The notes beneath the pieces are model-generated. The model was not told the DNA's origin and did not search any database. It was given only the letters and a program-made list of their open reading frames with translations. The translations under genes and the position numbers were made by a program. This document shows positions 4,161 to 64,000 of a DNA stretch of 64,000 bases, piece after piece; position 1 is the first letter of the stretch, and each line of letters starts with the position of its first letter. Source of the DNA: Paraphysomonas bandaiensis (lineage: Eukaryota > Protista > Chrysophyceae); the NCBI GenBank assembly GCA_965644295.1, contig CBFFRP010000283.1, positions 17,799 through 81,798 of the forward strand, given 5' to 3'.

Positions 4161-7100
4161 TATTGAATGTCTTTTTATTTAGCAATAGGCGTTAAAAACC
4201 CGTTCCGATATAGCGGCTAGTTGAATACTAGTCTACTAGTTAGACCTCTACCCATAACTAATCAGCGCAAATTCTATTATCCTACTATTTAACGCTACAG
4301 AAGCTGCTTGTGCGTCGCCGCAAGCACCAAGGTGCAACCACTTCCGTTCTTGATGTTGTGTGTGAGTTCGCCCTGCTCGTGTGTCTGAGGACTCACTGGC
4401 GCGTGTTGTCCGGGGGTCTCCCCTTGGGATACGGTTCCGCCTGACTCTGAGGTACCGGGTTCTGTATTAAGGTCCTGAGTGTACCGAGCACTAGATGTGT
4501 GGACTGAGAGGTTGATGGTGTGGTGGAATGTGGCGGTGTCGCCATGCACCGTTTGGGCGTTGGGCATAGGTGGAGTTGCCGGAGACGTCGTCGCCTTTGT
4601 CTAGGGCCTGTTGGTTTCATACGGTCCGTTGCTATGGTCCTCTGTGTATGGTTGGTAGGGTTCAGAGGTACGGTGGGCGGTGTTCCAGTCTCGGTTCGTC
4701 TGTGGATTCCTAGTAATCTTAGCACCCTTGGGCGTTTCCGTTTCTGTCTGTGGTTTGGACTCGGCCGCGGTAGTAGCCTTGGGGGGCCTTTCCGTAGGGT
4801 CACGTATCTTCTTCCGCGATCTTGGATCATGAGCTTTGCTGCAGCGAACAGCGGTAGCAGTAATTTGATGATCGCTGATTCGATGCTGCGCAGTCCTTGG
4901 GATGTCAGTGATTCATGGATGTGATCTCCAAAAACCATTTCAAGCTGTGTCATTGTGATGGTACCCGTCCAGAATCTCTCCACCTGTGGCACGGAAGGGT
5001 TCCAGGCCCTGCTGGAGAGTCGCTGGAGTACAGTGGTGGTCCATTGGGGTAATTCCGGATTCCTCATTTCTTCTAGGAGCGCGTTTTTGTGGCTGTGAAA
5101 TGCAGACTCCCTTATCTGCGTTATGGTGTCGTTTGTGCAGTCTAGACACATATGCTTGAGTGAGTCTAGTCTAAATCCGCAGTCAGAGCATACGGCTTTA
5201 GCCATGTCGAGTCCGTGTTTGGTTTTCGCCCGGTTTCTTCCTATGCTGAAGGATTTGTCCCATGTCAGTGCTGCATTTAGTACTCTTTGGCGCAGGTGGG
5301 AGCTCACTTTGTCCTTTGATGGTCCACCATCTGCTTGCGCCAGTTTGCGCGGAAGTAGTGCTCCGCTGTCTTTCCAGTATCCAGGAGCCCGGTCGGGATT
5401 GTGACCGTAGCGTTGGTCTCGGAGAGCTGTATATGCCTCCAGCGTCCGTTGATTACGGAGGGATTGGAAATCCGTGAGCAGGGGGCTAGTGCGATACGGC
5501 CGTCGTTCCCCAGTTAGGCGCCAGTGCCATAAACCCTCGGTGAGTATTCTCTCGATGGCTTGGTCCACTTCCATGTTACAGACAGTGTAGTTTTGTCGTC
5601 CGAGTAGTCGATCTACCTCAAGCCAGTCCCCTCCTGCTACTGCGTCGGCAATGTAAATTCCTTTGTCTTCATATGTCCATTCAGACTCATCAGAGGTGCG
5701 TCGTTCGGGGTGTGATCGGACCCAGGCTACTGTCCTTGTGCAATCGTTATTTGCTGCAATGCTTTCGAGCAGTACACCTTTGGCACGATGCCCCAGTGCC
5801 CGACGTCTGGCGGAGAGTGCTTCGTGTGTGCGTATGCAGACGGCCTTACAGTCCGTATTTATCGGTATGTGTGATGGGAGTCGCGCAGACAGTATAAGCG
5901 CCATTGCTGCTCCCATGAGCTCGTATGCATACGGGCCAAGTCCAGGCACGTCGCTGAAGGGTGTCTCTAATCGCAGTATTTTTGTTGTACCGTTCTTCCA
6001 TTCATCCTCCGGGGGGAGCCAGACTGCCGCCGCTCCTCCATAATGTGCCCATCTTGTACGTGGGTTTACATGCGTAATGCGGCGCGGGGATAGGGCTGTA
6101 GGCGTGTATGAGCCGTCGGTGAAGATTGCCTGATATGTATCCGCGGTTACATCATCCAGTTCTAATGTGCGGATAATGTTGATCAGGGTGTTGGTATCTT
6201 GAGGTTCCGGACTGTCGGGTTGTTGGAGAGTAAGGCCAACCTCCGTACCCCATTCCCGCAGAATTAAGGCAAAGTGGTGGTAGTTTGGGTACGGCGCGAT
6301 AGTCTGTGTTAGGAGAAAGTGCGCTGCGTCACCGGCATCACCGCCTAGGATTATGGCGCGCTGTAGGGAGCCCCATTTTTGTTCTTGAGCGGAGTCTGAG
6401 AAGCGTTTCATTCCAAGTCCATTATGCCTGAGAGAGAGGTAGATCATTTCCGTGGGGTAACCAGGACTCAGGCTTAGTGCTTTCCTGTAAAGGTTTGCGC
6501 ACGTTGAATCGATGTTCTTGTAATATTGCAGGGGCCAAGAAGCCTTGGTGGCCTTGTAAAGTAGAGTGGGTATGATTTGGGTCTCTATAACCATGACTTT
6601 GCAACCCGCTGAGGCGTGCCTGATCCCAAGGTGTGTGCCCGCTGCCTTTAGGTAGTTTGTACACCAATTGTATGAGTCCGTGTCTGTAGGTGTTAGTGGT
6701 AGATCCGCCCCCAAATAGTGTATCGATTCATGAGTCGTTTGTATTGGTACAGGTTGGGGTCTCCAATACCAGTCATATAAGGTAATGTGTCCGGTTTGTT
6801 TGACCTGGGCTAGATTTTCCCGTAGGTGAGGGAAAAAAGTGCAGATAACCTTAGGTACCGAGAGTTCCATTCCCGAGAAGCTGCAGAACGCCGACATTCG
6901 TATCGCCGTTTCCTGGGCTTGAGTGATAGACACATCTATGGTGGTGATGTCATCCGCGAAGGAGACTTTTTTCTTTGAGTTCGGGGTCAGTAGGAGTGGT
7001 GATGGTGTAAGACAGATTGCTCTAAGATCTAGGTCTAACCATGTAAGAAGGATATCGTGTAGCGCCACCCAGGCACAAGTGGATTCGGTTCCCCCCTGTG

Positions 7101-8631
7101 TGATTCCTCTCACGGCCTCAAATCCGAGTACGAACTGTGCAAGGAAGTGTCCGTCGGTAGCTAGAAGTTCTGCCAACGAGCGTGGCTCCATGTTGTTCGC
7201 CATGAACGGCGTCCATGGGAATGTGAGACCCCCAGCGTCTAATTCTCCAAACCATTCAACCACAGCATCGGGGACACCTAGCCGAGCCCATGCAAGTTTC
7301 ATTAGATTAGGTGTTATGGAGTCGAATGCTTTTTTGAAGTCCCAGAGCGTGCAGATGTGTTGGGCATTGTGACGTCTGGCTGCCTCTGAGGCCGCTAGAA
7401 CCCTTAAAATGGCCGTGTCTGTGCCATTTCTCCAGCGATATCCATGTTGGGACGGGTGTAGGATCTGCTGTTCCTCCCACAGACTGTGAGTATCCTGTGG
7501 GAGATTATTCTTGTCAGAATTTTCCGTGATATTTCGAGCAGACCGATCGGTCGAAGGTTGGAAAAAGAGGGTTCTCCTGGTTTCTTGAGTATGGGGGTCA
7601 TTACTCTGTCTCTCCACCAAGTAGGCACGTGTTTGTGCTTCCAGAGCGACTTGATAAGGGTGAATGCTTCCTGTTGTATGGCTGGAGGCCAGGATTTGAC
7701 CATGTTGGATGAGACCATGGAGGGTCCGGGAGCCCGGTTGAAGGATATGGAATGTAGGGTGGAGTAGAATTCTTCGTGCGTGATGTCCTTCTCTAAAGCC
7801 TTTCCGAGTAGGTCCGCCATTTCTGGTTTAACTTTAGTGCATAGTGCACGTCGTAGTCCGTGTTGTAGGGTAAAGGGTATGTGCGAGCACGGATGGAGGG
7901 GCTCCTGGGAAGTCACCGATTGAGGGTCAAGGAGGGTTTTCCACCAGTTGGGGTCGTCCTGTAGTCTTTGTGCGACTGGGTCCAGTCCTGCAGGTTCCGC
8001 GTGGTGGTCTCGAAAGTGTTTGTTGATTCCTTCGTGGATGTCTTGCGGGGTAGTGAGAAGTGTCCCGTCAGTAGTTCTCACTGTCGTTAGTCGAAGTGGC
8101 GTTTTGATTTTGAGTCCTATCTTCTGCAGTACTGCTTGTAGTCTTCTCTGTTCTAGTAATGCTTCCATTTGGTTTGTACGGTCTGTGAGCCTCTTGCGCA
8201 TCTCCGTCCTGTCTCGTCCGTGCAAGAGTCCTCGCATTCGAATCACAATGTGTAGAAGGTTCTTCTTGGTGACTTGTTTGGCAGTCCAGCTCAGAATGGC
8301 TCTGGGGTCTGCTGATCGGTAATCATTCCTGAAGTTGATGTCGGCTATTCCTTTCGCAGGTCCCGTGGAGTTTTGGAGGTACGAGTTCCCGCGCTCCTGC
8401 CAGGCGGTGATGAGCGCGTGGATCGGATTGCGTAATGGGGATCCACGCCATCCGTGTCTTTTATATCCAGCTGAGTTAAACATTTTCTGAACTATCTTTA
8501 TTACCATGACCATCCCTTCTTGAATTACCCTCATTTCCGGGGAGAAACCATCTTTAAAATGTGAACGAAGTCGCTGACACCGGTCATGGAGCCTCGTGCG
8601 ACGGCTGTAGCGGGGACCCTTTGCTGTAAGC
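4161..8631 (-). mobile_element. 5'-truncated non-LTR retrotransposon (RT + RNase H + CCHC finger) with 13-bp target-site duplication
   Basis: GACTTGAATTATT occurs at both 4148-4160 and 8632-8644. The interior is GC-richer than the flanks and encodes RT and RNase H motifs. Confidence 0.9.
4393..8534 (-). pseudogene. LINE ORF2 (reverse transcriptase-RNase H), single frameshift near 7480, endonuclease domain missing
   Basis: RAPGPS, PILKK..NLRPIGLL, SQHGYR, WDFKKAFDSI, RGITQGG, SFADDI and YLG are RT motifs. IFTDGS, YAYELMG, NTDCKAV, WVRSH and ADAVA are RNase H motifs. CSDCGFRLDSLKHMCLDC is the CCHC finger. ORFs 7404-8534 and 4393-7620 join as HRILTV/WEEQQILHPSQHG after removing a 2-nt insertion. 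Confidence 0.88.
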
Positions 8632-9096
8632 GACTTGAATTATTACTATGAGACATAAGACTATAGATCCGTCACATTTTATTTCATATGTAAGGCTAAT
8701 CGGGTAATCTTGCCAATCCTTTTAGTACCTGATGATTCTATATATAATAAGTCCGTAGAGTTACATGGAGTAATGATTCTTCGTACATGATGGTTTAACA
8801 CTTAACACAGTACACAGAACCGCTATAGGCATATATATTATATATCTATTGAGGTTGTCCGTAGTGTTCCATCAACTTATTGGACATTGGACACCCTCAT
8901 CAGTCCTTAGCACATTCAGATTTTTGCACAGATAAACTACATTTGCGGTTAATAAGTTAAGATATACTTCTCTGTAAAAGTTGCAATCCATCATGACAGG
9001 CACGTAAAGATAAACAACAACATAAATCAACAGCAGAGAGTCTCTACCCAGAACAAATATAGCAGTCAAAATATTTCACTAAATATAAACATGAGT

Positions 9097-32272: not shown

Positions 32273-35117
<2,845 letters not shown>

Positions 35118-35246
35118 ACTCTCCTTGACTAAGAGAAGAAGAGCAATAGGTGGGGTTATACTGCCATGCAAGGGGAGGTATGGTTGTGCAGTGTTTACTG
35201 CAGGGTGTGTTTCTCACTCTTGCCACTTGACCATACCATCCCACCG

Positions 35247-35488
35247 TACATACATACATACATACATACATACATACATACATACATACATACATACATA
35301 CATACATACATACATACATACATACATACATACATACATACATACATACATACATACATACATACATACATACATACATACATACTACATACATACATAC
35401 ATACATACATACATACATACATACATACATACATACATACATACATACATACATACATACATACATACATACATACATACATACATAC
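35247..35488. repeat. (TACA)n microsatellite, ~60 units
   Basis: Directly visible, with one internal phase slip near 35385. Confidence 0.99.
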
Positions 35489-35572
35489 GTACGTAGTACA
35501 GCAGTGTACATATGCACTGTCTCATAAGATGTGGATATGTATTTTAAAGCGCTGAATATCACTTGAAGTTTA

Positions 35573-36206
35573 ATGGTAGAAAGCGTCATTCCTCCGGTTG
35601 CGTTTGCCACTGTCAGTAATGGGGTACACCGATCGAGTCATCCAAGTACTACTTCATACCCTTTTCTACAGACTTTACAACTAAAGACTGCAATGTATGA
35701 CTATTGCAATATATATGCTCTATTTGCTTATATAAATTACAGATGTGTTGATAAGTGTGATATTCGAAAAGAGTTTAGAGAGTTTTGTGTGAGAAATGAT
35801 ATAGTGTTGATAGAACGTGACGTCGGCTTCAATCAGGAGCCATTTATAGTTATGTCACAACCTGTTGTTCAGGATGTTATAAACGTCGCACTTGGTATAT
35901 CTGCGGCCTGCTATTCGTTTTTATTTGACTCTTTGTCATTGCAGATCCAAAGTACCAACCCTGCCTTATTTTTTGTGGGAATGGAAAGGTATTACTTCTG
36001 TTCCAGTTTTTATTTTATTTTATATTATGTTCTAGTTGAAGACAAGCACTGTCATTGGGTGTTTGAGAATGGCTTTAAACTGGAGTTTTACGTCGACAAT
36101 AGATGAGTTTGTTAGATATGCAGGGCCCGAGGGTGGCTTGCATGATATCCAGTTCATAGAAAACTTTCGACCATCTGAAGTTTGTAGACAGAGTGATTCG
36201 AGTTAG
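35573..36206 (+). CDS. Siw14/OCA-family atypical tyrosine phosphatase-like protein (3 introns)
   Basis: VIPPVAFATVSNGVHRSSHP..FLQTLQLKT; spliced QPCLIFCGNGKLKTSTVIGCLR..NWSFTSTIDEFVRYAG..DIQFIENF. Confidence 0.75.
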
Positions 36207-49938: not shown

Positions 49939-51966
49939 GACAAACCTGAACCTCAAGATGCACATACCCTGACCAACATTATACGCACATTAGGTCTCGA
50001 TGATGTCAACCCTGATACGTACCAAGCAATCTTCACAGATGGATCATACACGCCCGGAGCTCTTTCCCACGCCGCCTTACGCATTTACACCCGCGCACAA
50101 GATGGACACATCTCGAAGGAGCGGCGGCTGTCTGGCTCCCCCCGGAGGATGCCTGGGAGAACGGCACCACTAAAATCCTGCGTCTAGAGACACCCTTTCG
50201 AGACGTTCCTTGACTTAACCCGTACGCGTACGAACTCATGGGAGCTGCTATATGGCACTTATACTCTCTGCGTGACTCCCTGCGCACATACCGATCAACA
50301 CAGACTGTAAAGCCGTATGCATCCGCACTGACGAGGCACTTTCCACCAGACGTCGGGCCCTACGACATCGCGCCAAGGGTGTACTGCTTGAAAGCATTGC
50401 GGCAAATAGAGCTTGTAAAAGCGGAATGTAGACTGGGTCCGATCACACCCCGAACGACGCACCATGGATGAATCTGAATGGACATATGCAGACAGAGGCA
50501 TCTACATTGCAGACGCCGTAGCCGGGAAGGACTGGCTTGAAGTTTACCGACTACTGGGCCGACAAAATTACACACTGTCTGTGATATCGAAGTAGACCAA
50601 CAAGCCATTGAGCGAATACTTACGACGGGTTTATGGCACTGGCGCCTATCCGGGGAACGACGGCCGCATCATACGAGTCCCCTGCTCACTGACTTCCAAA
50701 CCCTACGCAACCAACGGACGCTGGAGACCTACACTGCACTTCGAGATCAACGTTATATGGCCACAATCCCGACAGGGCGCCTGGATACTGGACAGACAGA
50801 TAGCACTACTTCCGCGCAAACTGGCACAAGCAGATGGTGATCCATCCAAGGATAAAGATAGTTCCCACCCTGCCTACGCCAGAGAGTACTCAATGCAGCA
50901 TTGGCATGGGACAAATCTTTTAGCATAGGGAGAGACTGGGCTAAAACCAAACAAGGTCTTGACCTGGCCAAGGCCGCATGTTCTGACTGTGGCTTTTGAC
51001 TAGACTCACTCAAACACATGTGTCTAGACTGCACAAATGACACCATCACCCAGATAAATACAAGAGACTGCCTTTCAAAGACACAAAAACGCGCTCCAAG
51101 TGATACTGAGAGATCAGGATCTACCCCACAGGACCACCAATGCGCTAGAGGCTCTCCAGTAGGGCCTGGAGCCCCTCCATCCCGCAGGTGGAGAGATACT
51201 GGACAGGTACCATCACCACAGCTCAACTCGAGATGGTTTTTGGAGATCACATCCATGAGTCCCTGACACCTCAAAGTCTGCGCAACCTTGAGGTAGCGGT
51301 CATCAGTCTGCTTCTCCCGCTTTTAGCTACAGCAAAGCTCATGATCCAAGATCGCAGTCGCCGCTATATATTACCCTACACAAAGGACCTCCTAGGCTAC
51401 TCCCGCGACCGCGTCAGAAACGTAGTCCGTCATGGAAGCGCCCAAGGGTGCTACGATTACTAGGAGTCCGTAGACGACCCGAGACTGGACCACCGCACAC
51501 ACGAACCCCACCAATCATATATACCCACAGGAACATATCACCGCCCCTCAAGAAACCCTCAGGTCCTCGACTACGACGCCGTCTCCGGCAACTTTACCTG
51601 TGCCCGAGGCCCAAACGGTGCACTGCGACAGTGACACATTCCAACTCTCAATCCACCTCTCAGCCCACACACCTAGCACTCGTCGGTATACTCAGGACCT
51701 TACTACAGAACCCTGCACCTCCACAAAAAGCCCAGTGGAGTCTCATCCCAAGGGGAGACCCCCTGATCACACGCGCCAGTGAGTCCTCACAATCAACATT
51801 AAGAACGGAAGTGGTCGCGCCAACAAGCAGCTTCTGTAGCGCTAAATAGTAGGATAATAGAGTTTGTACTGATTAGTTATGGGTAGAGGTCTAAATAGTC
51901 TGTCTAGCATTCAACTAGCCACTACATTGGTGCAGATTTTTAACGCCTATAATAAGACTATCAATA
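49939..51966 (+). mobile_element. Decayed 5'-truncated copy of the RT-RNase H LINE (RNase H to 3' end)
   Basis: PEPQDAHTLTNIIRTL..YQAIFTDGSYT, YAYELMGAA and LKHMCLDCTNDTITQI match the 4393-7620 ORF, with many stops and frameshifts. It ends in TTTTAACGCCTAT..AGACTATCAATA like the 4161 end. Confidence 0.9.
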
Positions 51967-53216: not shown

Positions 53217-54003
53217 TTATCTCTTGACCCACTGCTTCCTCTTGCGCGCCTTCTTGAATCCAGCCTTCTTTCTTTCAACCATTCTGGAGTCCCGAGTCAA
53301 TAATTTATCTACAAGTATACCACACAATTATTTTACTTAAGAAAAGCTCGAAAGGCACTTACGGCGCTTCAAGATAGGTTTAAAAAGCGGCTCAAATGCC
53401 TCAATGGCACGGGCTATACCATGTCTAACCGCCCCAGCTTGTCCTAATAGAAATTACTCTAAGCTAATAATTATTACCTTACTTACCCATACGGCCTCCT
53501 CCCTTTACTGTGCACCAGACATCGAAAAGCCCGGCGGTGTCGGTCGCCATAAATGGTTCCAGAGCATGCATGCGTGCACCAGATTGGAAATACTCTGCAA
53601 AATTTTGACGATTGACAATAAATTGCCCCACACCCTGCTTAATCCATACTCTTGCAACAGCTGTCTTTCGTCTTCCTGTCCCATACGCAGCACCATATTT
53701 ATCAATACTTTTGGCTCTAAATATTGTTGGATGCGGACGATCATCAATAAAATCCAATGGAGGCTCTTCACTGCCTTCGAGACCATTCTCAGAAAATTCT
53801 GATTTATGATTATTATACCCTATCTCACTATTGATTTTCGAGCTAACTGGTGTGGCGATACGTGTGTCTGTGTTACTACTACAGCAGCGGATGAGACTGC
53901 TCGACACATTTCTCTGAGAGCTCTGAAATAACATGTTATGAATATTACTGAGAGGGTTAGTGGAACGCACAAGGCGTGCACACGCTAGCCCGAAGCGCTT
54001 CAT
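53217..54003 (-). CDS. MRPS9: Mitochondrial ribosomal protein uS9 (2 introns)
   Basis: Arg/Ser-rich presequence, YGTGRRKTAVARV, VKGGG..QAGAVRHGIARA and LLTRDSRMVERKKAGFKKARKRKQWVKR*. Confidence 0.92.
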
Positions 54004-54067
54004 CGCAGCAGGTGAAATAGACGTAGTGCTCAATAGTTATCAGATTACAACAAACCCCACCCACATA

Positions 54068-54375
54068 TACATACATACATACATACATACATACATACAT
54101 ACATACATACATACATACATACATACATACATACATACATACGTACATACATACATACATACATACATACATACATACATGCATACATACATACATACAT
54201 ACATACATACATACATACATACATACATACATACATACATACATACATACATACATACATACATACATGCATACATACATACATGCATACATACATACAT
54301 ACATACATACATACATGCATACATACATGCATACATACATTCATACATACATACATACATACATACATACATACA
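54068..54375. repeat. (TACA)n microsatellite with TGCA/TACG variants
   Basis: Directly visible. Confidence 0.99.
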
Positions 54376-54569
54376 ATACGGATGGGCACAGTCGGTTTGT
54401 TCCAATAGTCGTACTGCGGCAGTTTTCTATTAACGTCTGCATGTATGTCTGCTCTGTATGAGTGTTTATAGCTACTCATATATAACACTCCTCTTCATAC
54501 CAGCACGACCCTATCTCATAACATGTATTATCCTCTTCATTAGTTATATTATCAGTCATATCTGTACCA

Positions 54570-55913
54570 ATGGAAGCGAAGAATACACTCCCTGCTATCC
54601 CAAGTGCACAACAACCAGAGGAAGTAGAAGACGACGACGAGGACTTGTTTAATTCATCTGATGAATCAAGCGATGACGAAGATGGAAATAGAAAAACAAA
54701 TCTTCAAAGTGTGAATAGTTATTTACGAAAGAAAAAGAAGAACTTTCTTAAGATGTTTATCGATTATGGACCGCCTTATACAAAAATGGAAACTGGTATC
54801 ACTTTATTGGATGAATGTGCACTGCCAGAGCCATCTTTATTTGAGATTCATTCAATGTTGAATGCTAGAATTACTCCTAATTTCCAGGACCCTGAAGACT
54901 ACTATAATTCTGCAATGCATTGGTGCGCGAGACATGCTCATTTGCGAGCTATGAAACTTTTGAAACGAGCAAAAGTTGAAATGAACCCACAAAATGAGTT
55001 CGGCCAGACTCCATTGCATATATTATGCATGATGGTTTTCCCGGAAGACAAGAGGAAGCGCCAAATGAAGACATTTAACTGGATGTTATCTCAGGGCAGT
55101 AATATAAATATTCGCGATAAAGGCGGCTATTGCCCGATAGATTATGCCGCAATGAATGGCCATGAGCTTATGGTGGAAATATTACTTGAGCGCGGAGCTG
55201 AGGTGCTACGTGACAATCACACTTTTGTTGCCACTCGTCAGCAGCTTTTACATGTCACAGTGGGAGAGAATGCGAAACGAATGATTCAAGACCGCATTCG
55301 TAATGTGGTCGCTGAAAAGGAAGCTGAGGTAGAGCGTAAACGCATAGAGAAAGCAATTGCAGAAGAAGCTGCGAATCTTAAAAAACGACATGCTCGTTTG
55401 GCACGTAAGAGACAAGAGGCGATAGAAGCCAAAGCGATCGCTGACGAGCGCGAGTTCCAGGAAAAAAAGGAAGCAGAGAAGAAAAAGAAGCTCGAAGAGG
55501 ACGCACGGTTGCTGCGACAAGAGCGAACTGCGAGCAATAAGCGTTTAGGGGGATGGAAAAAGAAGGGATATAATGGTAGGTGGGAATATCAGAACAGAGA
55601 AGGGCCTGTTGACAAGAAAGCTGAGAGGGACGAGTTGTATCATAGTAATCGGAGATTGATGAAAACACTTCGTGATAAGAATAAATTCGAAGTATACAAC
55701 GACCGATGGAAACGCACAACAGGAGGAAGTGAGTTAGAAGTTGTCTGGACGAAGCAAGCAGTGTTTGACATACCTGATTTGGATTCAGATGATGAGAAGA
55801 GCGACACAGTTCAGAAGAGAAAGCCTAAGGTCATTGACAGTCTGGCCTATCATGATGAAAATGATGCCGAGCTAGAAGGGGAAGACATAGATGATTTACT
55901 AGAATTCACTTAA
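54570..55913 (+). CDS. Ankyrin-repeat plus coiled-coil protein
   Basis: NSAMHWCARHAH, GQTPLHIL and GYCPIDYAAMNGH..LLERGA, followed by an E/K/R-rich helix. Intronless 447-aa ORF. Confidence 0.8.
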   Translation: MEAKNTLPAIPSAQQPEEVEDDDEDLFNSSDESSDDEDGNRKTNLQSVNSYLRKKKKNFLKMFIDYGPPYTKMETGITLLDECALPEPSLFEIHSMLNARITPNFQDPEDYYNSAMHWCARHAHLRAMKLLKRAKVEMNPQNEFGQTPLHILCMMVFPEDKRKRQMKTFNWMLSQGSNINIRDKGGYCPIDYAAMNGHELMVEILLERGAEVLRDNHTFVATRQQLLHVTVGENAKRMIQDRIRNVVAEKEAEVERKRIEKAIAEEAANLKKRHARLARKRQEAIEAKAIADEREFQEKKEAEKKKKLEEDARLLRQERTASNKRLGGWKKKGYNGRWEYQNREGPVDKKAERDELYHSNRRLMKTLRDKNKFEVYNDRWKRTTGGSELEVVWTKQAVFDIPDLDSDDEKSDTVQKRKPKVIDSLAYHDENDAELEGEDIDDLLEFT

Positions 55914-56657
55914 ACAATGATATTGTGTAGTTTATTTGTAACCGTATACGGTTCACTGAAATATTTTAAGTTGTGTTTTGTATATACCTAGGCTTTAGCA
56001 CAAGTTCTTGTATTATATTCGACCTGTAATGAATACAGTACCTTCATATTCACAGTATAGAAATCAAAGAATTGATACATTGATATATATTTAGACTAAT
56101 TTATAATGCACTATTAAGTGATACAATACTATGTGATCCTTACGTCGCGCAACACAGCTACGAAAGCATAATGAACAACAAGCAGAAAGCTAGTGAATCT
56201 TAATTAAATTAATTGATACTGTTACTATACGTACCACAGTATTCGTTTTTAACTTCCAACATTAAACTCATAACATAGTACGCTACCACGAACCTGCACA
56301 CACACAGAGAGAGGGGGGGGGGTCTTCGACCCTAGCCGTGTTAACCGTGACCATAAAAACTATTAATTTATACTGACCCTTACCCCTATGGTATCGCTGT
56401 GTATCACGTACAAGTGCTTCCAATATTGTACATTACATTTTTTTATACACTTTTTTGCATAAAAAATGTCGTGTCACCTTTCACAATAAAAAATGCAAAA
56501 AAAATCTTATTTTCACAAATTCTGTAACAGTATACACTACATTTTTTACAACATTTTTCTTAAAAAAAAACTTTTTTCTAAAAAATAAATATCAGAAATA
56601 AATATTTTCAACAAAAATGTCAAAAAAAATGCAATCAAAATAAAATAATACTATACA

Positions 56658-56733
56658 TATTAACCCCAGCGATCAACCGACCCTATTAACCAAGCGATCA
56701 ACCGACCCTATTAACCAAACAATCAACCAACCC
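56658..56733. repeat. Three tandem 25-26-bp subterminal repeats
   Basis: TATTAACCCCAGCGATCAACCGACCC / TATTAACCAAGCGATCAACCGACCC / TATTAACCAAACAATCAACCAACCC. Confidence 0.95.
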
Positions 56734-56873
56734 TGACTTAAACACCGAACAATTACAACAGATAGACGGAACAACAGACCTGTTTAACACTATATATAGA
56801 CATGCCGTATTTTACTCCCTGTTTTACATATATAAGAATATAAAATAATAAAAAAATATATAGTTATATTATA

Positions 56874-57305
56874 ATGTCAAAAGAAATAAAATATTTCAGT
56901 TGTTGTGAAAATGTTGATTCCGAGCGTAACGGTAAGTACTATTACAAACATAAAAAGTACATTCATAAAAATCCTTCTGACTGTTTAAAACATAAGTTAA
57001 ATAGGCCAGCTGATGAAGTCAATGATATAATAAGCAAACGGTTTAAAAAGGATGCTATATATAGTAGTCTTCTTAGTTTTGTACCATGTAACAATTCACC
57101 TGAATGTTACGAATGGCATGATAAATTTATTATTGATTCAGGTTTAAGAGAAAATGAAGATGATGATATTCAAGATGAATTTTATCTTAAAAATAAGTTT
57201 TGGGATTCAGTTGTTTATATTATTGAAAATGACGGCAATAAAGAGAAAATGGAAGCGGATAAGTGGACATATTCAATGAATATTATTGATAATATAATTT
57301 GTTAA
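56874..57305 (+). CDS. Viral hypothetical protein, family A (paralog of 58094-58540)
   Basis: Shares IKYFxCCENVD, SDCxKHKL, DEVxDxIxxRFKK and YIIENDGNKxKMxxxKWxYSxN with 58094-58540. Preceded by the element promoter motif. Confidence 0.8.
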   Translation: MSKEIKYFSCCENVDSERNGKYYYKHKKYIHKNPSDCLKHKLNRPADEVNDIISKRFKKDAIYSSLLSFVPCNNSPECYEWHDKFIIDSGLRENEDDDIQDEFYLKNKFWDSVVYIIENDGNKEKMEADKWTYSMNIIDNIIC

Positions 57306-57344
57306 AAACATTATAGAATTATTTTTTTGTAATGATACATTATA

Positions 57345-57674
57345 ATGTCAAAGGCCGAAAGTAATAAATTTTTCTTTATGGAAATGGAAGGTAAAATTTT
57401 TAGTGTTAAACGTGATTACAAAACAAACGTACAGAACGAAATAGAACAAGGCAAAAAGGAAATGAACATTTTAATAGATAAACAGAATAACATAAATGAA
57501 GAATTATTAAAACTTAACAATAAAATAAGTGATAAAAAAATGTCTTTGTTAACTAAGAGGCAGCTATTAGAATTATACTGCGGCAAGAAACGCATACCGT
57601 GCTTGGATTTTTTCAAAAAAAATGTTACCGATGTTTATATTGATGATGACACAGACAGCGACGAGGACTGTTAA
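57345..57674 (+). CDS. Viral hypothetical coiled-coil protein, family B
   Basis: Intact ORF with TATAATG start. Similar layout to 57773-58057 (hydrophobic-xGx-F/Y head, heptad stretch, RQL motif). Confidence 0.7.
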   Translation: MSKAESNKFFFMEMEGKIFSVKRDYKTNVQNEIEQGKKEMNILIDKQNNINEELLKLNNKISDKKMSLLTKRQLLELYCGKKRIPCLDFFKKNVTDVYIDDDTDSDEDC

Positions 57675-57772
57675 CAGCAATAAAACATTGACTATTAAAT
57701 TATAATTTATTTCAATTATTACATATGTAAAAATATAAAATAATTAAAAAAAATATATAGTTATATATTATA

Positions 57773-58057
57773 ATGAGTGAGTATTTATTAAAGTTGAAAG
57801 GAGAAGTGTACTGTATTAGAAAAACACATATGCCTAAAATTCAGGAAGAGATAAGAAATTTAGACAGAGAAATAGAAGACATGAAAATTACATTATCAGA
57901 ACTTCAGAAACAAAAGAAAGAGTTACAAGTAGAGCTATTAAATGAACGGCAATTAATCATATATGAAAATAAAGACGAAGATAAAAGGACTGAATTATTA
58001 AGAAAATATGATTTTCTACACGGTGAATATCGCAGTGATTCTGTAGGATGGAAATAA
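57773..58057 (+). CDS. Viral hypothetical coiled-coil protein, family B paralog
   Basis: Intact ORF. Its upstream ~55 bp is nearly identical to that of 56874. Confidence 0.7.
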   Translation: MSEYLLKLKGEVYCIRKTHMPKIQEEIRNLDREIEDMKITLSELQKQKKELQVELLNERQLIIYENKDEDKRTELLRKYDFLHGEYRSDSVGWK

Positions 58058-58093
58058 AATATTATAATAATATAAATATATGCTGTTATTATA

Positions 58094-58540
58094 ATGCCAC
58101 ACACAGATATAAAATATTTCATATGTTGTGAAAATGTTGATGATGAAGCAAAAGGTGAATGCGTGGATGATAACGATATAATATATAAACATCGTGATTG
58201 TTCTGACTGCAAAAAGCATAAATTAAGTAAAACAGTTGATGAAGTTCAGGATGTAATACACAGACGTTTTAAAAAACGTTTTGATGTCGCTATGTTACAT
58301 TATCCTCATGAATTTTCTACATTTTTAAATAATTGTTCAGAACAATATATTAACGATAATAATTTAAAAGAAAGAAAAAACGAAGTTATTACCAAAGATG
58401 GCCGTTATTTATGGGATAAACTCTTAAATGCAATTGAATACATCATAGAAAACGACGGAAATAAAAGAAAAATGAAAACAAAAAAATGGAAATATTCATT
58501 AAATGTTGTTGACAAACTAATGGATGATGATGATGATTGA
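58094..58540 (+). CDS. Viral hypothetical protein, family A paralog
   Basis: Colinear conserved blocks shared with 56874-57305. Confidence 0.8.
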   Translation: MPHTDIKYFICCENVDDEAKGECVDDNDIIYKHRDCSDCKKHKLSKTVDEVQDVIHRRFKKRFDVAMLHYPHEFSTFLNNCSEQYINDNNLKERKNEVITKDGRYLWDKLLNAIEYIIENDGNKRKMKTKKWKYSLNVVDKLMDDDDD

Positions 58541-58811
58541 TAAACTGATAAGGTAAATTAAGGGATAAAAACGCGATAATTGTTCGCGAAATTATCCCTT
58601 AGATGTAAAATATATAAATATATTATGTGATATACTTATATATGGTGAATATCGCAGTGATTCTGTAGGATGGAAATAAAATATTATAAAAAAATGCAAT
58701 TGATAAACTGATAAGGTAAATTAAGGGATAAAAACGCGATAATTGTTCGCGAAATTATCCCTTAGATGTAAAAAAATATATAAATATATTATGTGATATA
58801 CTTATATATGG
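58536..58811 (+). repeat. ~110-bp direct repeat (58536-58645, 58699-58811), each copy containing a 43-nt hairpin
   Basis: TAAGGGATAA-AAA-CGCGA-TAATTGT-TCGCG-AAA-TTATCCCTTA at 58559-58601 and 58722-58764. Confidence 0.95.
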
Positions 58812-59038
58812 ACGGCCTAGAATGGGAAATAAACTATGATAATTATGAATTTCCAAAGAAAAATATTATAGACTTAGACAGAGTAATTAACTTAGACACA
58901 CCAAAATTAAACAGAAATAATAATATAGATACAGACATGTTGACTTATGATTTTGCAGAAATAAAAATATCTAATAATGTTAATGGAGAAAATACAGATT
59001 GTTCTAAACAGCAAGACAGCAAACCAATACCTAAATAA
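58808..59038 (+). CDS. Small viral hypothetical protein
   Basis: ATG at 58808 after TATATATG. Its 3' end overlaps the minor capsid start. Confidence 0.45.
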   Translation: MDGLEWEINYDNYEFPKKNIIDLDRVINLDTPKLNRNNNIDTDMLTYDFAEIKISNNVNGENTDCSKQQDSKPIPK

Positions 59039-59714
59039 TAAAACTACTGATTGTATTTTTATATTACCAAAGATAGATGTTAAACGACGTCATAAAGCCT
59101 ATATATCAGTAATTGATGCCTCTATCCCATATTCATTTTATAATGTTAATTCAACCAATAACACACTGAATTATACATTAAATAGTATCCCATATTCACT
59201 TACAATTACAAAAGCCAATTATAATATTAGAACTTTAATAAGTTTTTTACAGTCCAATTTAGAGCCAGGATTTACAATAACTTATAACTCATCAACTAAT
59301 AAATTACAATTTACCCATAGTACTTATGATTTTTCTTTTTCAAATACTTCAACCTGTTTTGAATTATTAGGATTTGAAGATAATATACCCTATTATTCAG
59401 ATTCATTAACATTATTATCAACAATTGGTATAAATTTATTTACAATAAGAAACGTTTTAATAGCATCGTCAAATTTCGTTTTAAATAATATAAATAGTGC
59501 TACACCTAATAAAGCCTCTATTATTACCTCTGTACCTGTTGATGTTAATGCAGGATCTATTATTAATTATAAAAATATTAATAATATTAAGAGCTTAGTA
59601 CATGATATACATAATATAAATACTTTACATGTCCAATTATTAGACCAAGACGCAGATGTATTGGAATTAAACGGTTTACATTGGTCTTTAAATTTATTAT
59701 TAACTATTGAATAA
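58977..59714 (+). CDS. Putative minor capsid protein (penton, single jelly-roll) of PLV
   Basis: Beta-rich 245 aa with IVLNSK, SIPYSFYNVNSTNN, NYNIRTL, ELLGF, IITSVPV and LHVQLLDQD..LELNGLHWSLNL, the pattern typical of Polinton/PLV pentons. Adjacent to the MCP. Confidence 0.72.
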   Translation: MLMEKIQIVLNSKTANQYLNNKTTDCIFILPKIDVKRRHKAYISVIDASIPYSFYNVNSTNNTLNYTLNSIPYSLTITKANYNIRTLISFLQSNLEPGFTITYNSSTNKLQFTHSTYDFSFSNTSTCFELLGFEDNIPYYSDSLTLLSTIGINLFTIRNVLIASSNFVLNNINSATPNKASIITSVPVDVNAGSIINYKNINNIKSLVHDIHNINTLHVQLLDQDADVLELNGLHWSLNLLLTIE

Positions 59715-59744
59715 AAAATATTTCTCTCAATATAGTGTATATAC

Positions 59745-60185
59745 ATGTCAAAACTAGGCAAAAAGCTAAATCGTAAATTTCGTAAACTAGGACGCAAGGC
59801 GGACCATCGCATACATAAACTAGGACAAAAGACGCACGACGTATTAGATAAGGTCCAACATGGAGTAAATAAAGGTCTTGATAAATCAGCAAAAGCAATT
59901 AACGTAGCAGATAAAATATTAGGCGTCGGCGATAAAACTATACACGCTATTAATAAAGCAGGATTAAATACAATGCCCGTTGTTGGATCAGCATCTAGAC
60001 TATTGGAAGCAGGATTACACGAAGGACATAAAGGAGTACATAAGCTACATAAGCTCCATAATAAAGCCGATAAACACAGTAAAAAAGCATTTAAAAAGGC
60101 TCATAACGCAGGTAATAAATTAGAAAAACACAACACAAGAAAAGCTTTAGCTAAGTTAACACAAGATGATAGCACATTTATATAA
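59745..60185 (+). CDS. Highly basic Lys/His-rich viral protein (putative core/DNA-condensing protein)
   Basis: KLGKKLNRKFRKLGRKADHRIHKLGQK and HKGVHKLHKLHNKADKH repeats around a PVVG amphipathic segment. Lies between minor and major capsid genes. Confidence 0.6.
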   Translation: MSKLGKKLNRKFRKLGRKADHRIHKLGQKTHDVLDKVQHGVNKGLDKSAKAINVADKILGVGDKTIHAINKAGLNTMPVVGSASRLLEAGLHEGHKGVHKLHKLHNKADKHSKKAFKKAHNAGNKLEKHNTRKALAKLTQDDSTFI

Positions 60186-60233
60186 ATTATATTTTATTAT
60201 ACTATAAAAAATATTTATCTATTTATAGTATAT

Positions 60234-61589
60234 ATGTCAGGATTACCAAAAAACGTATTATATACAAATAATATAAATTCAAGTTACGCACGTAATTACC
60301 AGAATAATATAGCTCCACAGAATGGTTTAGGGCCATATGGTGCAGGAGAGACCATAATTATTAATGTTCCTACCGGTCGTAATCTCGTAATGTCGGGTGC
60401 TGATTCACTTTTAAAATTAAGCTTAATAGTAAACACAGAAACATCTGACCCTGCGACCACAGCAGAATACGTCAGACTAGATAAGGCGGGTATTCATTCC
60501 CTAATTTCTAGAGTGCGAGTATTTCATGGCTCTACTTTACTTTCAGATATTCAGAATTATAATAATCTAGTTGGTCAGTTAATGACTTTGCAACAGTCCA
60601 ACGACTCTTTTATTAACAAACACACAATTTTATCAGGAACGGAATGTTTCAGCCTTATTGACACCGCTACAAACACAAACGAGGGTTTAATTGTTGGTGA
60701 AAGACTTAATGAATTCACACAAGTTGCGAATGGGGGCAGTACAACTAAACGATATTATACAGTACCAATAATGAATTTTTTAAGCTACAGTGATAAATAT
60801 ATCCCACTGTTCGCAATGACTGGCGCGCCTTTACGACTAGAAATAGTTCTGGTTAATAATCCATTAGAGGGGATAAACTGCGATAAAGCCATAACATCAA
60901 TAGCTATTAATGACGTTGAATATGTTTGTAATTTTATGGAGTTATCAGATGACGCAATGAATAAAATTAATTTGGCATCAAATGGACCTTTAAGGTGGGT
61001 TGTACAAGATTACAGAAATTATTCACATACTGGAAATATTGCCGCTAACGTTGAACTTAGTGTACCCGTACCCGCTAAATATAACTCTTTAAGATCTCTA
61101 TTTTTCAGTATGCGCGATAAACACGCTGGAGAAGTCACCTATTTCCCGTTGTCATCAAATCATTTCGGTCTAGAGTCATACAGTGTTAGATTAGGTAGTA
61201 AGACCGTACCAACTAAAGCACCTAGTTGCCTTCCTGAATTTTTCGGCGAATTGATCAGAGCAATTGGAAGCGTAAGCGATTTGAATCATGAACCAAGCAT
61301 TAATATAAATACTTATGATATGCAAGCGTCAGCAGCCAATAGCGAGACAGCAGCCGATTATAACGGGTGTGCAGCATCATCCAACTTTTATTTAGGTTTA
61401 GATTTAGAAAGTTACAGCAGCTCAGGTATGGAAACAGTATACCAGGGTTATAATTCTAGCACTGACGATATATTTTTTATGCCTCGTTTTTCCTCAAGTG
61501 CCCCCACTGTGACCGCACGCATAGATACATACGCTTATTTTGATCAAGTCATTTTGATTGAAAACGGTTTTGCAACATTGCAATATTAA
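60234..61589 (+). CDS. Putative double-jelly-roll major capsid protein of PLV
   Basis: 451 aa, beta-rich. MSGLPKN..IAPQNG..GETIIINVPT, LISRVRVFHGSTLLSDIQNYN, KYIPLFAMTGAPLRLEI, KYNSLRSL and FYLGLDLESY motifs recall PLV MCPs. Confidence 0.8.
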   Translation: MSGLPKNVLYTNNINSSYARNYQNNIAPQNGLGPYGAGETIIINVPTGRNLVMSGADSLLKLSLIVNTETSDPATTAEYVRLDKAGIHSLISRVRVFHGSTLLSDIQNYNNLVGQLMTLQQSNDSFINKHTILSGTECFSLIDTATNTNEGLIVGERLNEFTQVANGGSTTKRYYTVPIMNFLSYSDKYIPLFAMTGAPLRLEIVLVNNPLEGINCDKAITSIAINDVEYVCNFMELSDDAMNKINLASNGPLRWVVQDYRNYSHTGNIAANVELSVPVPAKYNSLRSLFFSMRDKHAGEVTYFPLSSNHFGLESYSVRLGSKTVPTKAPSCLPEFFGELIRAIGSVSDLNHEPSININTYDMQASAANSETAADYNGCAASSNFYLGLDLESYSSSGMETVYQGYNSSTDDIFFMPRFSSSAPTVTARIDTYAYFDQVILIENGFATLQY

Positions 61590-61672
61590 ATTTATAAAAA
61601 ACCTTTAGATTTTTAAAAAAATAAAAAATTAAAAAATTTATTATTTAAAAAATAATATATATTTGTATATTA

Positions 61673-63235
61673 ATGAGTACAAAAGAGAGTTTTGAAAAGT
61701 TTGATTTAGAACACCTTGATAACCTGACTTATGAACAGTCAAAAACTTACGTAACAAATTATTTTTTCCCACTTACAAGCGGTGCACATGCATATAGAAC
61801 AGGACATAAAAAATTTAGCATTATGGAACACAAAAAAGTTAAAGAAACGTATTTTAACAGAATGGATAAACGGATAGCAAAATATTATTTCACTGAATTT
61901 AAAGGGCTTCGTGAAATAGTTTATGAATTAGGTAAAGGTATATTCCCTGATAAAAAGAAATTAAATTTAGCCGCTCAGTTTGCACATGACTATAAACCAT
62001 ATGAAGACTTTGATGATGAGAGTAAGGAAGGTGTACAGGCGTTTTTATCATATATTAAAGAAATATTGGCATCCAATGATCAGGCGCAATATGAATATTT
62101 ATTAAAGTGGTTTGCAAACATGACAAAGGGTAATAAAAACGAATCTATCATTTTCCTAAAAGGCCCTCAGGGTATAGGTAAATCAACCATATCCCTATTT
62201 ATGAATACTTACGTGCTTGGCCGTGACCTGTGTTTAGAGGCTGGCGCGGACGTGTTGACATCTAAATTTAATTCAGATCTGGGAGGTAAATTATTTGTAT
62301 ATTTTGAAGAATTAGAAAAACAAAGCAGGGCTGATTGGGACGCAATCAATACTAAATTAAAACGATATACGACGAGCGACGTTTATATAATAAATCCAAA
62401 GCATGAGTCAACATATCAGGCTACAAATATTAATAATTATTTAATTAATGCAAATTATAGTTTAAATGAAGAATGCGGAAGAAGGTATTTTATTTGTGAT
62501 ATTTGTTGTAAAAAACGCAATGACTTAAAATATTTTGGATGGCTACGTAATCTATGCTTTAATAACGAGGTTGGACATGCTTTTTACTGTTATTTAATGG
62601 AATACAACACAGAAAAATTTTATAGTCAAAATTTTCCCATCACAAAAAACAAGTTAGATGCATACGCCAAGAGATTGGGAAGCGTTGAAATGTTTTTAAA
62701 GGATGAATTTATATTAAAGAGATTGGATATAAATAATATACTTGTTAAAGAAATATTTAACCATTATATCCAGTATTGTACTCAAAATAATATTAAACCA
62801 GTTAAACATACAATTGATTTTAATAAGGTCATGAGTGAATTAAATTTTATTCACAAAAAGAATAAAGATAGGCGTAATGTGTACAATGTTACATTAGACG
62901 AATTAAATAAAGTTTCTGAATCTTTACATTGGGTTCATGAATTAGATGAATATGATGATGGCCCTGATGTAGAATATAACATTAAAGATACAATTAAAAA
63001 ACGTTGTAATAATCAAAGTAATAAAACAAATGATAACACCATTGCAAGCGCTATTAAAAAGCTTAGCAATAAAAAAAGCGATAAAACAGATGAAGATACA
63101 GATGATGATACAGATGATGATACAGATGAAGATAAAGATGAAGATACAGATGAAGATGATGATGAAGATGAAACACCCCGTGTAAGTCAGAAGACAGTGA
63201 AAGATATAATGAAAACTTACGGAATAAATATTTAA
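61673..63235 (+). CDS. Superfamily-3 (D5/NrS-1-like) DNA helicase with acidic tail
   Basis: EYLLKWFA, Walker A GPQGIGKS, SKFNSDLGGKLFVYFEE (Walker B), INPKH and GRRYFI arginine finger. 12-bp GATACAGATGAW repeats at ~63086-63172. Confidence 0.85.
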   Translation: MSTKESFEKFDLEHLDNLTYEQSKTYVTNYFFPLTSGAHAYRTGHKKFSIMEHKKVKETYFNRMDKRIAKYYFTEFKGLREIVYELGKGIFPDKKKLNLAAQFAHDYKPYEDFDDESKEGVQAFLSYIKEILASNDQAQYEYLLKWFANMTKGNKNESIIFLKGPQGIGKSTISLFMNTYVLGRDLCLEAGADVLTSKFNSDLGGKLFVYFEELEKQSRADWDAINTKLKRYTTSDVYIINPKHESTYQATNINNYLINANYSLNEECGRRYFICDICCKKRNDLKYFGWLRNLCFNNEVGHAFYCYLMEYNTEKFYSQNFPITKNKLDAYAKRLGSVEMFLKDEFILKRLDINNILVKEIFNHYIQYCTQNNIKPVKHTIDFNKVMSELNFIHKKNKDRRNVYNVTLDELNKVSESLHWVHELDEYDDGPDVEYNIKDTIKKRCNNQSNKTNDNTIASAIKKLSNKKSDKTDEDTDDDTDDDTDEDKDEDTDEDDDEDETPRVSQKTVKDIMKTYGINI

Positions 63236-63284
63236 AAAAATAAAAAATAATTTATTTAAAAAATTAATATATAAATATATATTA

Positions 63285-63539
63285 ATGAGAGATAAATTTA
63301 TAGTAGAAGTATATGATAGTAATAATAATCTGATTACATCACAAAACTTTACATCCTATAAGGCAATAGCTCAGGAATACGATATACAATATTCAGAAGC
63401 TAGGAAACTTAACGCTTTATGTGAGTCACGTACAACATGTAAATACTTACATCCATCATTAAAGCGACTGATTAACAGAATAAAAATTTATGATATTAAT
63501 AATATAAATAATTATGATATTAAAAAAATAAAAATTTAA
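63285..63539 (+). CDS. Small viral protein, NUMOD1-like DNA-binding fold
   Basis: IVEVYDSNNNLITSQNFTSYKAIAQEYDI resembles NUMOD1 helix-turn-helix modules. Conserved promoter motif upstream. Confidence 0.5.
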   Translation: MRDKFIVEVYDSNNNLITSQNFTSYKAIAQEYDIQYSEARKLNALCESRTTCKYLHPSLKRLINRIKIYDINNINNYDIKKIKI

Positions 63540-63571
63540 TTATTTAAAAAATTAATATATAGTTTATATTA

Positions 63572-63904
63572 ATGGACAAATATAAGTTTTATAAGATTGA
63601 TGAGAAGGACTTTAAAAACTCAGTTGAAATTACGACCAGATTCAGACACAGAAAAAAAGGTAAAGAATTAGATGTACCCGATATGCACTTTTTATATGAT
63701 ATGATTGAGGAAAACTTACCAGAAGATGCTAATATAATGGTTAGAGCGTTAAATGGTCACAGATACTTTACATTTAAAGGGTATACTAGTTACCATCTGA
63801 ACGTTCAGGATTTTGATGACTATTATAAAAGCTCAGTCAAGAATACTGAGAAATTTGAGAAGTTTGAATTTATTGATATAACGGTGTTCATGTCTACGAC
63901 ATGA
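63572..63904 (+). CDS. Viral hypothetical protein
   Basis: Intact 110-aa ORF with the conserved upstream motif. Confidence 0.7.
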   Translation: MDKYKFYKIDEKDFKNSVEITTRFRHRKKGKELDVPDMHFLYDMIEENLPEDANIMVRALNGHRYFTFKGYTSYHLNVQDFDDYYKSSVKNTEKFEKFEFIDITVFMSTT

Positions 63905-63963
63905 TCCATACGTTAACTCCTGTATTTCTCACAAAATAAAAAATTAAAAAATTAAAAAATTAA

Positions 63964-63997
63964 ATATTTAAAAAATAATATATAGTATATATTAATG
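63964..63997 (+). promoter_or_regulatory. Element promoter motif and ATG (63995) of the next viral gene, cut by the window end
   Basis: TATTTAAAAAAATAATATATAGTATATATTAATG matches the motifs before 61673, 63285 and 63572. Confidence 0.7.
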
Positions 63998-64000
63998 AGC

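Follow-up and report, generated by a model that had tools for sequence, protein, structure and literature searches.

The probable left part of an integrated Polinton-like virus, one of a variable family, behind an ankyrin-repeat gene of Paraphysomonas bandaiensis

We analysed a 64,000-nucleotide stretch of the Paraphysomonas bandaiensis contig CBFFRP010000283.1 (assembly GCA_965644295.1, positions 17,799 to 81,798), hereafter the window, whose last 7.7 kb carry the genes of a putative endogenous Polinton-like virus (PLV). The content of guanine plus cytosine (GC) was 28.9% at 56,297-64,000 in comparison to 43.4% at 1-56,296, the drop lying at about 56.3 kb, 380 nt past an ankyrin-repeat gene. 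The part from 56.3 to 64.0 kb, referred to below as the element, holds 11 complete open reading frames (ORFs) of 76 to 520 aa, all on the + strand, plus the ATG of a twelfth at 63,995, and the complete + strand ORFs cover 90% of 56,874-63,904. When ATG-initiated ORFs of at least 75 aa were counted on both strands, the element gave 12, in comparison to a mean of 0.76 and a maximum of 3 in 100 shuffles. A common A/T motif was found within 40 nt upstream of seven of the 12 ORF starts and has seven occurrences in the whole element, in comparison to none in the 56-kb host part and a mean of 0.18 in 500 shuffles of intergenic sequence, a contrast that is inflated because the pattern was derived from the tested start regions themselves. 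The original prediction of an AT-rich stretch with 11 or more co-oriented, unbroken ORFs after a host gene is in agreement with these counts, as are the shared start-proximal motifs, with the inflation just described.

The gene at 60,234-61,589 (+) encodes the major capsid protein of 451 aa, whose identity comes from folding, since searches by sequence in Pfam, PHROG, the PDB and a phage collection gave no match. The AlphaFold2 model, based on a 120-sequence alignment, reached a pLDDT of 90.4 and a pTM of 0.89, and the Foldseek comparison with the PDB returned the iridovirus and PBCV-1 capsids at E 7e-18 with a TM of about 0.6, along with other double jelly-roll capsids, Sputnik ranking below the capsids of nucleocytoplasmic large DNA viruses. 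This capsid has 236 homologues, all six of those rescanned passed Pfam Capsid_N, and a protein-atlas search led to viral clusters without names. The penton, or minor capsid protein, of 245 aa (243 from the second Met) is encoded at 58,977-59,714 (+) and was recognised by DUF5901 and by its fold, the AlphaFold2 model (pLDDT 93.5) matching the mavirus penton 6g42 best at E 4.7e-10, followed by the Sputnik and adenovirus pentons. Between the two lies ORF7 (59,745-60,185, +; 146 aa, Lys/His-rich), with BLAST homologues in the same penton-capsid slot of 18 of 127 related loci and a profile match (probability 92%) to the small gene that other relatives carry in this slot; it is likely to be a DNA-condensing core protein. 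Downstream of the capsid, 61,673-63,235 (+) encodes a stand-alone superfamily 3 (SF3) helicase of 520 aa with an acidic tail and without a primase domain (DUF5906 at E 8e-15; a PHROG primase-helicase match at E 8e-23 that covers the helicase part only), which has the Walker A motif GPQGIGKS, the Walker B motif FEE and 186 homologues. The structure searches that had been proposed as a check on the capsid and penton genes were run, and the modelled folds, together with the helicase domain and motifs, support the double jelly-roll capsid, the penton and the SF3 helicase that had been proposed for this locus.

The 127 related loci were collected by profile-guided scans; scans of viral and genome contigs with the single capsid protein, or with the DNA pattern of the left end, gave no match. 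The gene order conserved in the relatives is ATPase, small gene, in some cases lipase, penton, small basic gene, capsid and one of three gene clusters. Terminal inverted repeats (TIRs) bound seven of the 34 long loci (six distinct), which measure 15.7-18.4 kb, and under half of the element is therefore expected to be visible in the window. In a capsid tree of 92 of 122 sequences (FastTree, midpoint root, built without PLV reference groups) the window capsid and P0001 fell in a clade of 23 with support of 0.96, together with L048-L055. Close capsid relatives pass into DNA of higher GC content at 5,300-8,445 of L054, where a protein-kinase-like ORF occurs, and at 7,400-7,881 of L057, suggesting that these two elements are likewise integrated in a eukaryote genome. 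One viral contig (L007/L008) contains two inverted copies of the capsid module, which probably arose as a mirror image in assembly.

The replication genes were read with the help of syntenic relatives. A 17.6-kb viral contig (L034/L133) has the capsid family and the helicase family (43% identity) together and continues with a homologue of ORF11, a 428-aa protein with PolB motifs A, B and C and a fragment of an RVE integrase gene. In L035 and L093 the helicase is followed by homologues of ORF10 and ORF11, a short PolB and a converging RVE-type gene, an order that the window shares as far as ORF11, and the integrase of the relatives matches Pfam rve. ORF10 (63,285-63,539, +; 84 aa) is a small NUMOD1-like gene by a weak match, and its best matches among the loci (E 1e-4 to 0.1) lie between the helicase and the ORF11 homologue in these same two loci. 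The start at 63,995-64,000 (+), an ATG behind the common upstream motif, is predicted from the gene order in L035, L093, L133 and L115 to open ORF12, a short PolB consisting of the palm only. The earlier expectation that polymerase and integrase follow downstream is backed, as a prediction, by this synteny. The helicase family was also found on many contigs with other gene sets (L128-L152), the capsid family being known on the contig of one of these 25 loci (L133), and such gene contexts indicate module swapping.

ORF11 (63,572-63,904, +; 110 aa) is the likely stand-alone terminal, or primer, protein. Its profile matched the N-terminal domain of four long PolBs with a probability of 63% and a score of 31.6 after that part had been excised from the PolBs, while 41 control clusters did not score above 16.0 and four other PolB blocks not above 12.4, and the protein atlas gave no usable match. 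Nine PolBs were tabulated, one of them cut by a contig end. The four long ones (618-695 aa) combine the N-terminal domain with DC...HY residues that are characteristic of the vOTU domain, and none of their four loci has an ORF11 homologue, whereas the four short ones (404-469 aa) do not have the DC motif and are preceded by an ORF11 homologue in all four. Read by eye, the ORF11 homologues show the pattern of a small alpha/beta domain with a candidate linking tyrosine before the last strand, and Tyr84 of ORF11 is invariant. In mavirus the protein-primed PolB (pPolB) has the form terminal protein-vOTU-palm and the SF3 helicase is separate (Krupovic et al. 2024, PMC11071308). Because the matching N-terminal domain is the terminal protein according to these authors, ORF11 may be a free terminal protein, a reading to which we give somewhat better than an even chance. 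Split terminal proteins are described in adenovirids and one coral polinton (PMC11071308), and a literature search for a separate terminal protein or for PLVs without an ATPase, made outside subscription journals and preprint supplements, returned only the adenovirus and coral polinton precedent.

Of the 97 penton loci, 66 carry the A32 packaging ATPase at most 2 kb upstream of the penton, three carry it elsewhere and four have none within at least 2.7 kb, 24 loci being too short, so that it is upstream in 66 and moved in three of the 73 informative loci. In the eight closest loci, which belong to the same capsid clade, the ATPase comes directly before the ORF5 homologue in all six that reach that far, and a low-complexity gene without a Pfam match, which we infer to be fibre-like, follows the capsid in all eight. 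The position after the capsid is held by one of the three conserved clusters in 92 of 103 informative loci and by a helicase in none. Profile searches of the element (12 profiles, best E 0.04) gave no remnant of ATPase, lipase, fibre-type, PolB, RVE or GIY-YIG genes. The ATPase slot is filled here by ORF4 (58,094-58,540, +; 148 aa) and a duplicated hairpin spacer (58,536-58,811), whose two 110-nt copies at 58,536-58,645 and 58,699-58,811 are 97% identical and enclose a copy of the 3' end of ORF3 (58,644-58,689, equal to 58,022-58,067). A strong hairpin (z -5.7; 58,559-58,601 and 58,722-58,764) stands directly past the ORF4 stop and is reminiscent of the hairpin-directed transcript 3' ends that occur in Mimivirus and Sputnik.

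ORF4 is a paralogue of ORF1 (56,874-57,305, +; 143 aa) with 41% identity. This family is nearly private to the element, with two matches among 1.84 billion representatives, and its N-terminal Cys/His residues could bind metal. Contigs of four sequencing runs (X1, X5, X10 and X15) were placed on 53,300-61,600, a range that ends before the helicase gene. Contig depths of ORF4 were 529 and 646 in comparison to 1,430 for ORF3 in X5, and 21 and 12 in comparison to 48 in X10, while a contig of the RNA-type run X15 fuses 58,057 to 58,588 and skips ORF4, which suggests that ORF4 is present in some copies and absent from others. ORF2 (57,345-57,674, +; 109 aa) and ORF3 (57,773-58,057, +; 94 aa) are coiled-coil-like, the former without a Pfam family or a homologue among the 127 loci, the latter with sub-threshold coiled-coil Pfam matches only. 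Both are covered in X15, ORF3 at a contig depth of 100. ORF5 (58,808-59,038, +; 76 aa) overlaps the penton start and has homologues in six of the 127 loci, in every case between ATPase and penton; it had no profile match (0.6%) to the other small gene that the family carries between these two. An X10 contig of typical depth runs from the duplicated spacer through ORF5 into the penton, suggesting that in this family the spacer commonly adjoins ORF5, in copies other than that of the window too. The element had been called apparently intact; given the ATPase and the post-capsid gene that are absent from the slots they occupy in the relatives, and the duplication/deletion in the ATPase slot, that description is not supported as put forward, and intactness hinges on the unseen right half.

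The element begins at about 56,289-56,298, a boundary whose exact base would need the right end. Positions 56,297-56,830 are non-coding and start with (CA)n(GA)n and a G run, with three 25-nt tandem copies later on, at 56,658-56,734. In X1 and X5 the summed contig depth of this part is two to four times that of the capsid genes, and we infer it to be a candidate TIR whose other copy would lie beyond the window. Protein priming by a slide-back mechanism would fit an end of the type (CA)n(GA)n. No terminal hairpin was found at this end (z +1.1 and +1.4). A 4.2-kb RNA-type contig of X15 (record 21) ends in a variant of the left end followed by poly(A), in which the terminal G-run motif comes directly before a part matching 56,627-56,663; the transcript likely read through into a copy that has been shortened internally, or into a small derivative that is not autonomous.

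The flanking ankyrin-repeat gene (54,570-55,913, +; Pfam Ank_2 at E 1e-16) lies outside the element and belongs to the host, its exact protein sequence being present in eukaryote transcriptome collections; it shows single-copy depth in X1 and X5 and an RNA-type contig in X15. In X1 the flank has a depth of 25-32 and no base differences from the window, and the contig stops 26 letters past 56,292. The corresponding X5 contig (depth 90.6, four differences) continues for 1,043 letters that fit neither the element nor the rest of the window, likely an empty site or allele. Single element contigs of X5 reach depths of 217-1,548, which is 2.4-17 times the flank, and their summed depth, higher still, is not a copy number, and free virus DNA could contribute to it. 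In X10 the flank has a depth of 0-3 and the element contigs 12-48. For X5, 195 variant sites were reported, and 33 of the 40 variant rows shown fall within ORFs; in penton, ORF7 and capsid 10 of 14 copy differences are synonymous in comparison to 21-22% expected. In X15, which is of RNA type as shown by a spliced intron of the host, contigs from other copies cover the left end, ORF2 and ORF3 and none covers the penton, ORF7 or capsid, such contig gaps being no evidence of silence. The window stretch also occurs in runs that carry four organism labels, and marine metagenomes from three studies contain 0.40-0.48 of its words. The sequences thus point to what is probably a multi-copy, variable family, with copies estimated in the tens, and to a likely recent insertion behind the ankyrin gene that varies between strains. 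The integration and recent mobility claimed earlier find indirect support in the X1 and X5 contig ends and the copy variants.

With regard to class, the double jelly-roll capsid and single jelly-roll penton are characters of PLVs in the broad sense (Polisuviricotina), and the stand-alone DUF5906 SF3 helicase is that of the mavirus-type module (pMVRE group 1), whose exonuclease-less pPolB and RVE integrase are present, by motifs and Pfam rve, in the syntenic relatives. No cysteine maturation protease was found in the window, in 41 cluster representatives or in 53 further ORFs of five TIR-bounded relatives, by Pfam searches that may miss divergent ones, and the element is for this reason not considered a virophage in the taxonomic sense. 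Against the solved chains, among them virophage capsids, the capsid likewise gave no match by sequence or by profile. The named PLV groups considered (group definitions in PMC7805220 and 10.64898/2026.06.19.733378) were Gossevirus/GKS1, TsV/TVS, GKS2, GKS3, PgVV and Trimcap. None of 12 related contig names occurred in the 2021 PLV group table, and membership in Trimcap is unlikely, as the conserved post-capsid cluster had no match to the capsid profile (0.35%).

That protists carry endogenous PLVs in copy numbers from tens to thousands is well documented (PMC10120064, PMC12220804), and these PLVs have in common with the present element a low-GC insert with capsid, penton and helicase and many non-identical copies (Bellas et al. 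2023, PMC10120064; Bulzu et al. 2025, PMC12220804; Halocafeteria preprint 10.64898/2026.07.28.741278). They span 15-30 kb with terminal inverted repeats, and many groups are without a protease, as are the relatives here; the window copy differs in that its ATPase is not beside the penton, and the Halocafeteria elements have a terminal hairpin, unlike the left end here. Swaps of replication modules between capsid lineages are on record (10.64898/2026.10.13.758929, PMC13215967). The DUF5906 SF3 helicase is shared with mavirus and the endogenous mavirus-like elements (EMALEs) of Cafeteria burkhardae (Hackl et al. 2021, PMC8547959) and with pMVRE group 1 (Wei et al. 2026, PMC13215967), whose exonuclease-less pPolB with RVE is seen in the relatives and predicted for the window element, and mavirus and the EMALEs further share strain-specific insertion sites and the penton fold. 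Differences from mavirus are the non-virophage capsid, the relatives without protease and the lack of a family-wide TCTA late promoter, which is known from mavirus and CroV (PMC8547959). Furthermore, terminal protein, vOTU domain and palm form one chain in mavirus, whereas the short PolBs beside ORF11 homologues are without both N-terminal domains. In adenovirids, PRD1 and one coral polinton (PMC11071308) the terminal protein is apart from the pPolB, as is likely here, and the small alpha/beta domain with a candidate linking tyrosine, as read by eye for ORF11, would be a further shared trait, but their polymerase keeps the vOTU domain and the exonuclease, in comparison to the 404-469-aa PolB of the relatives without the vOTU DC motif.

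Taken together, the capsid and penton folds, the helicase motifs, the unbroken frames and the many variants at a depth far above the flank are direct observations, and the stretch is in our judgement probably the left 7.7 kb of a PLV, likely recently integrated and likely one of tens, with a predicted full length of 15-18 kb. Replication of its linear genome would be protein-primed, with ORF11 as the terminal protein; the exonuclease-less PolB starting at 63,995 would do the copying while the SF3 helicase unwinds, as in mavirus, and an RVE integrase further right would insert the element and so create a short duplication of the target. We slightly favour a move of the packaging ATPase and fibre-type genes to the unseen right half over their loss. 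The element would be mostly silent until something from outside activates it, with co-infection by a giant virus as the most plausible trigger, a step that we regard as evenly balanced. Gezel-14T is reportedly an integrated PLV that is switched on by a giant virus and lowers the yield of the latter. Integrated Tetraselmis PLVs reactivated by TetV-2 (10.1101/2025.10.09.676808) are a model for a giant-virus-induced PLV that lowers giant-virus yield, and apply here by analogy only.

Several results speak against parts of this account. The window is without the A32 ATPase and the post-capsid gene of its closest relatives, and the profile search gave neither polymerase nor integrase in the visible 7.7 kb. 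The PolB label comes from motifs A, B and C in an alignment, without a Pfam or PDB match, and ORF11 gave only 0.3% and 2.5% against whole PolB profiles. No contig extends 31 letters to each side of the junction, occupied and empty sites were read from contig ends only, and X1 is possibly the source of the window itself. Among the copy differences in ORF1 and ORF2, two of 10 are synonymous. A TCTA lies 16 nt before the first ATG of both penton and capsid in the window, while in the relatives the CroV-type TCTA is not enriched before the capsid genes (14 of 101, in comparison to 9.3 in shuffles with a maximum of 19), the penton genes (11 of 79, in comparison to 6.2 with a maximum of 13) or the ATPase genes; because of this, the proposed giant-virus dependence rests on analogy, as do the inducibility and the defence role suggested earlier. 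Enrichment was found only before two small-gene clusters (20 of 76 in comparison to 5.6, and 15 of 50 in comparison to 4.4) and, marginally, before the GIY-YIG and helicase genes, which was not used as support.

The strongest competitor starts from the ATPase-less slot: the element could be a reduced, helper-dependent derivative that has kept the capsid, penton, core, replication and integration genes, has lost the ATPase and fibre genes, spreads within the genome in the manner of a Polinton transposon and relies on a related PLV for its packaging. The near-constant ATPase position in the relatives (66 of 73, and six of six directly before the ORF5 homologue), with none found by profile in the window, the post-capsid clusters of 92 of 103 loci, where no helicase occurs, and the ATPase-less slot on the X10 contig, so that the slot is not unique to the window copy, all speak for it. 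The mostly synonymous differences in the capsid module (10 of 14) suit genes still in use, however, the ATPase has moved in three of 73 relatives, and over half of the element is unseen, and we consider this derivative clearly the less probable history, yet one to be taken seriously. Less probable again, and unlikely in our estimate, is the combination of a spreading PLV family without packaging ATPase and fibre genes, with capsid and penton under selection and packaging by a helper, and of a palm-only PolB primed by a separate 110-aa terminal protein.

The two other explanations concern the assembly and the class. A chimera of host DNA with a free or contaminating virus would account for the lack of a formal bridging contig and for the other DNA behind the same flank in X5, but the X1 flank contig halts in the first letters of the element, as expected on entering a repeat, many variants are seen rather than one genome, and element and flank co-occur in runs of different organism labels, which makes a chimera very improbable. 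A true virophage (Virophaviricetes, of the mavirus-like EMALE type) would fit the penton fold, closest to that of mavirus, and the relatives with a mavirus-type stand-alone SF3 helicase, exonuclease-less PolB and RVE. The 451-aa capsid is without a sequence or profile match to solved virophage capsids and has a fold nearer to iridovirus and PBCV-1 than to Sputnik, and neither the scanned ORFs of the five TIR-bounded relatives nor the conserved clusters gave a cysteine protease; a virophage is in our view the least probable of all.

The host part of the window contains, in addition to the ankyrin-repeat gene, genes for a CCT chaperonin, a CDC48-type AAA protein, a DENN protein, a sulfatase and ribosomal S9. 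A long interspersed nuclear element (LINE)-type retrotransposon with reverse transcriptase at 4,393-8,639 (-) is broken across two frames, so that the description of the host transposable elements as decayed holds for the one that was checked. A related-looking LINE fragment occurs at about 50,750-51,850. Long GTAT microsatellites at 53,957-54,382 and 34,921-35,637, between or inside host genes, give rise to spurious ORFs of MYVC repeats.

The element described here adds one more case to the well-documented class of PLVs, integrated PLVs being common in protists. Three points go beyond the routine: an insertion that varies between strains, an ATPase that has been displaced or lost, and a terminal protein that is likely split off. 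As the insertion differs between cultured strains and close variants occur in marine metagenomes, induction by giant viruses would be directly testable. The split terminal protein, if true, would be an independent case of the adenovirus type of fission, accompanied by loss of the vOTU domain. The missing ATPase raises the testable question of helper-dependent PLVs, and a PLV that is packaged by a helper would, if that explanation is true, be a satellite of a satellite.

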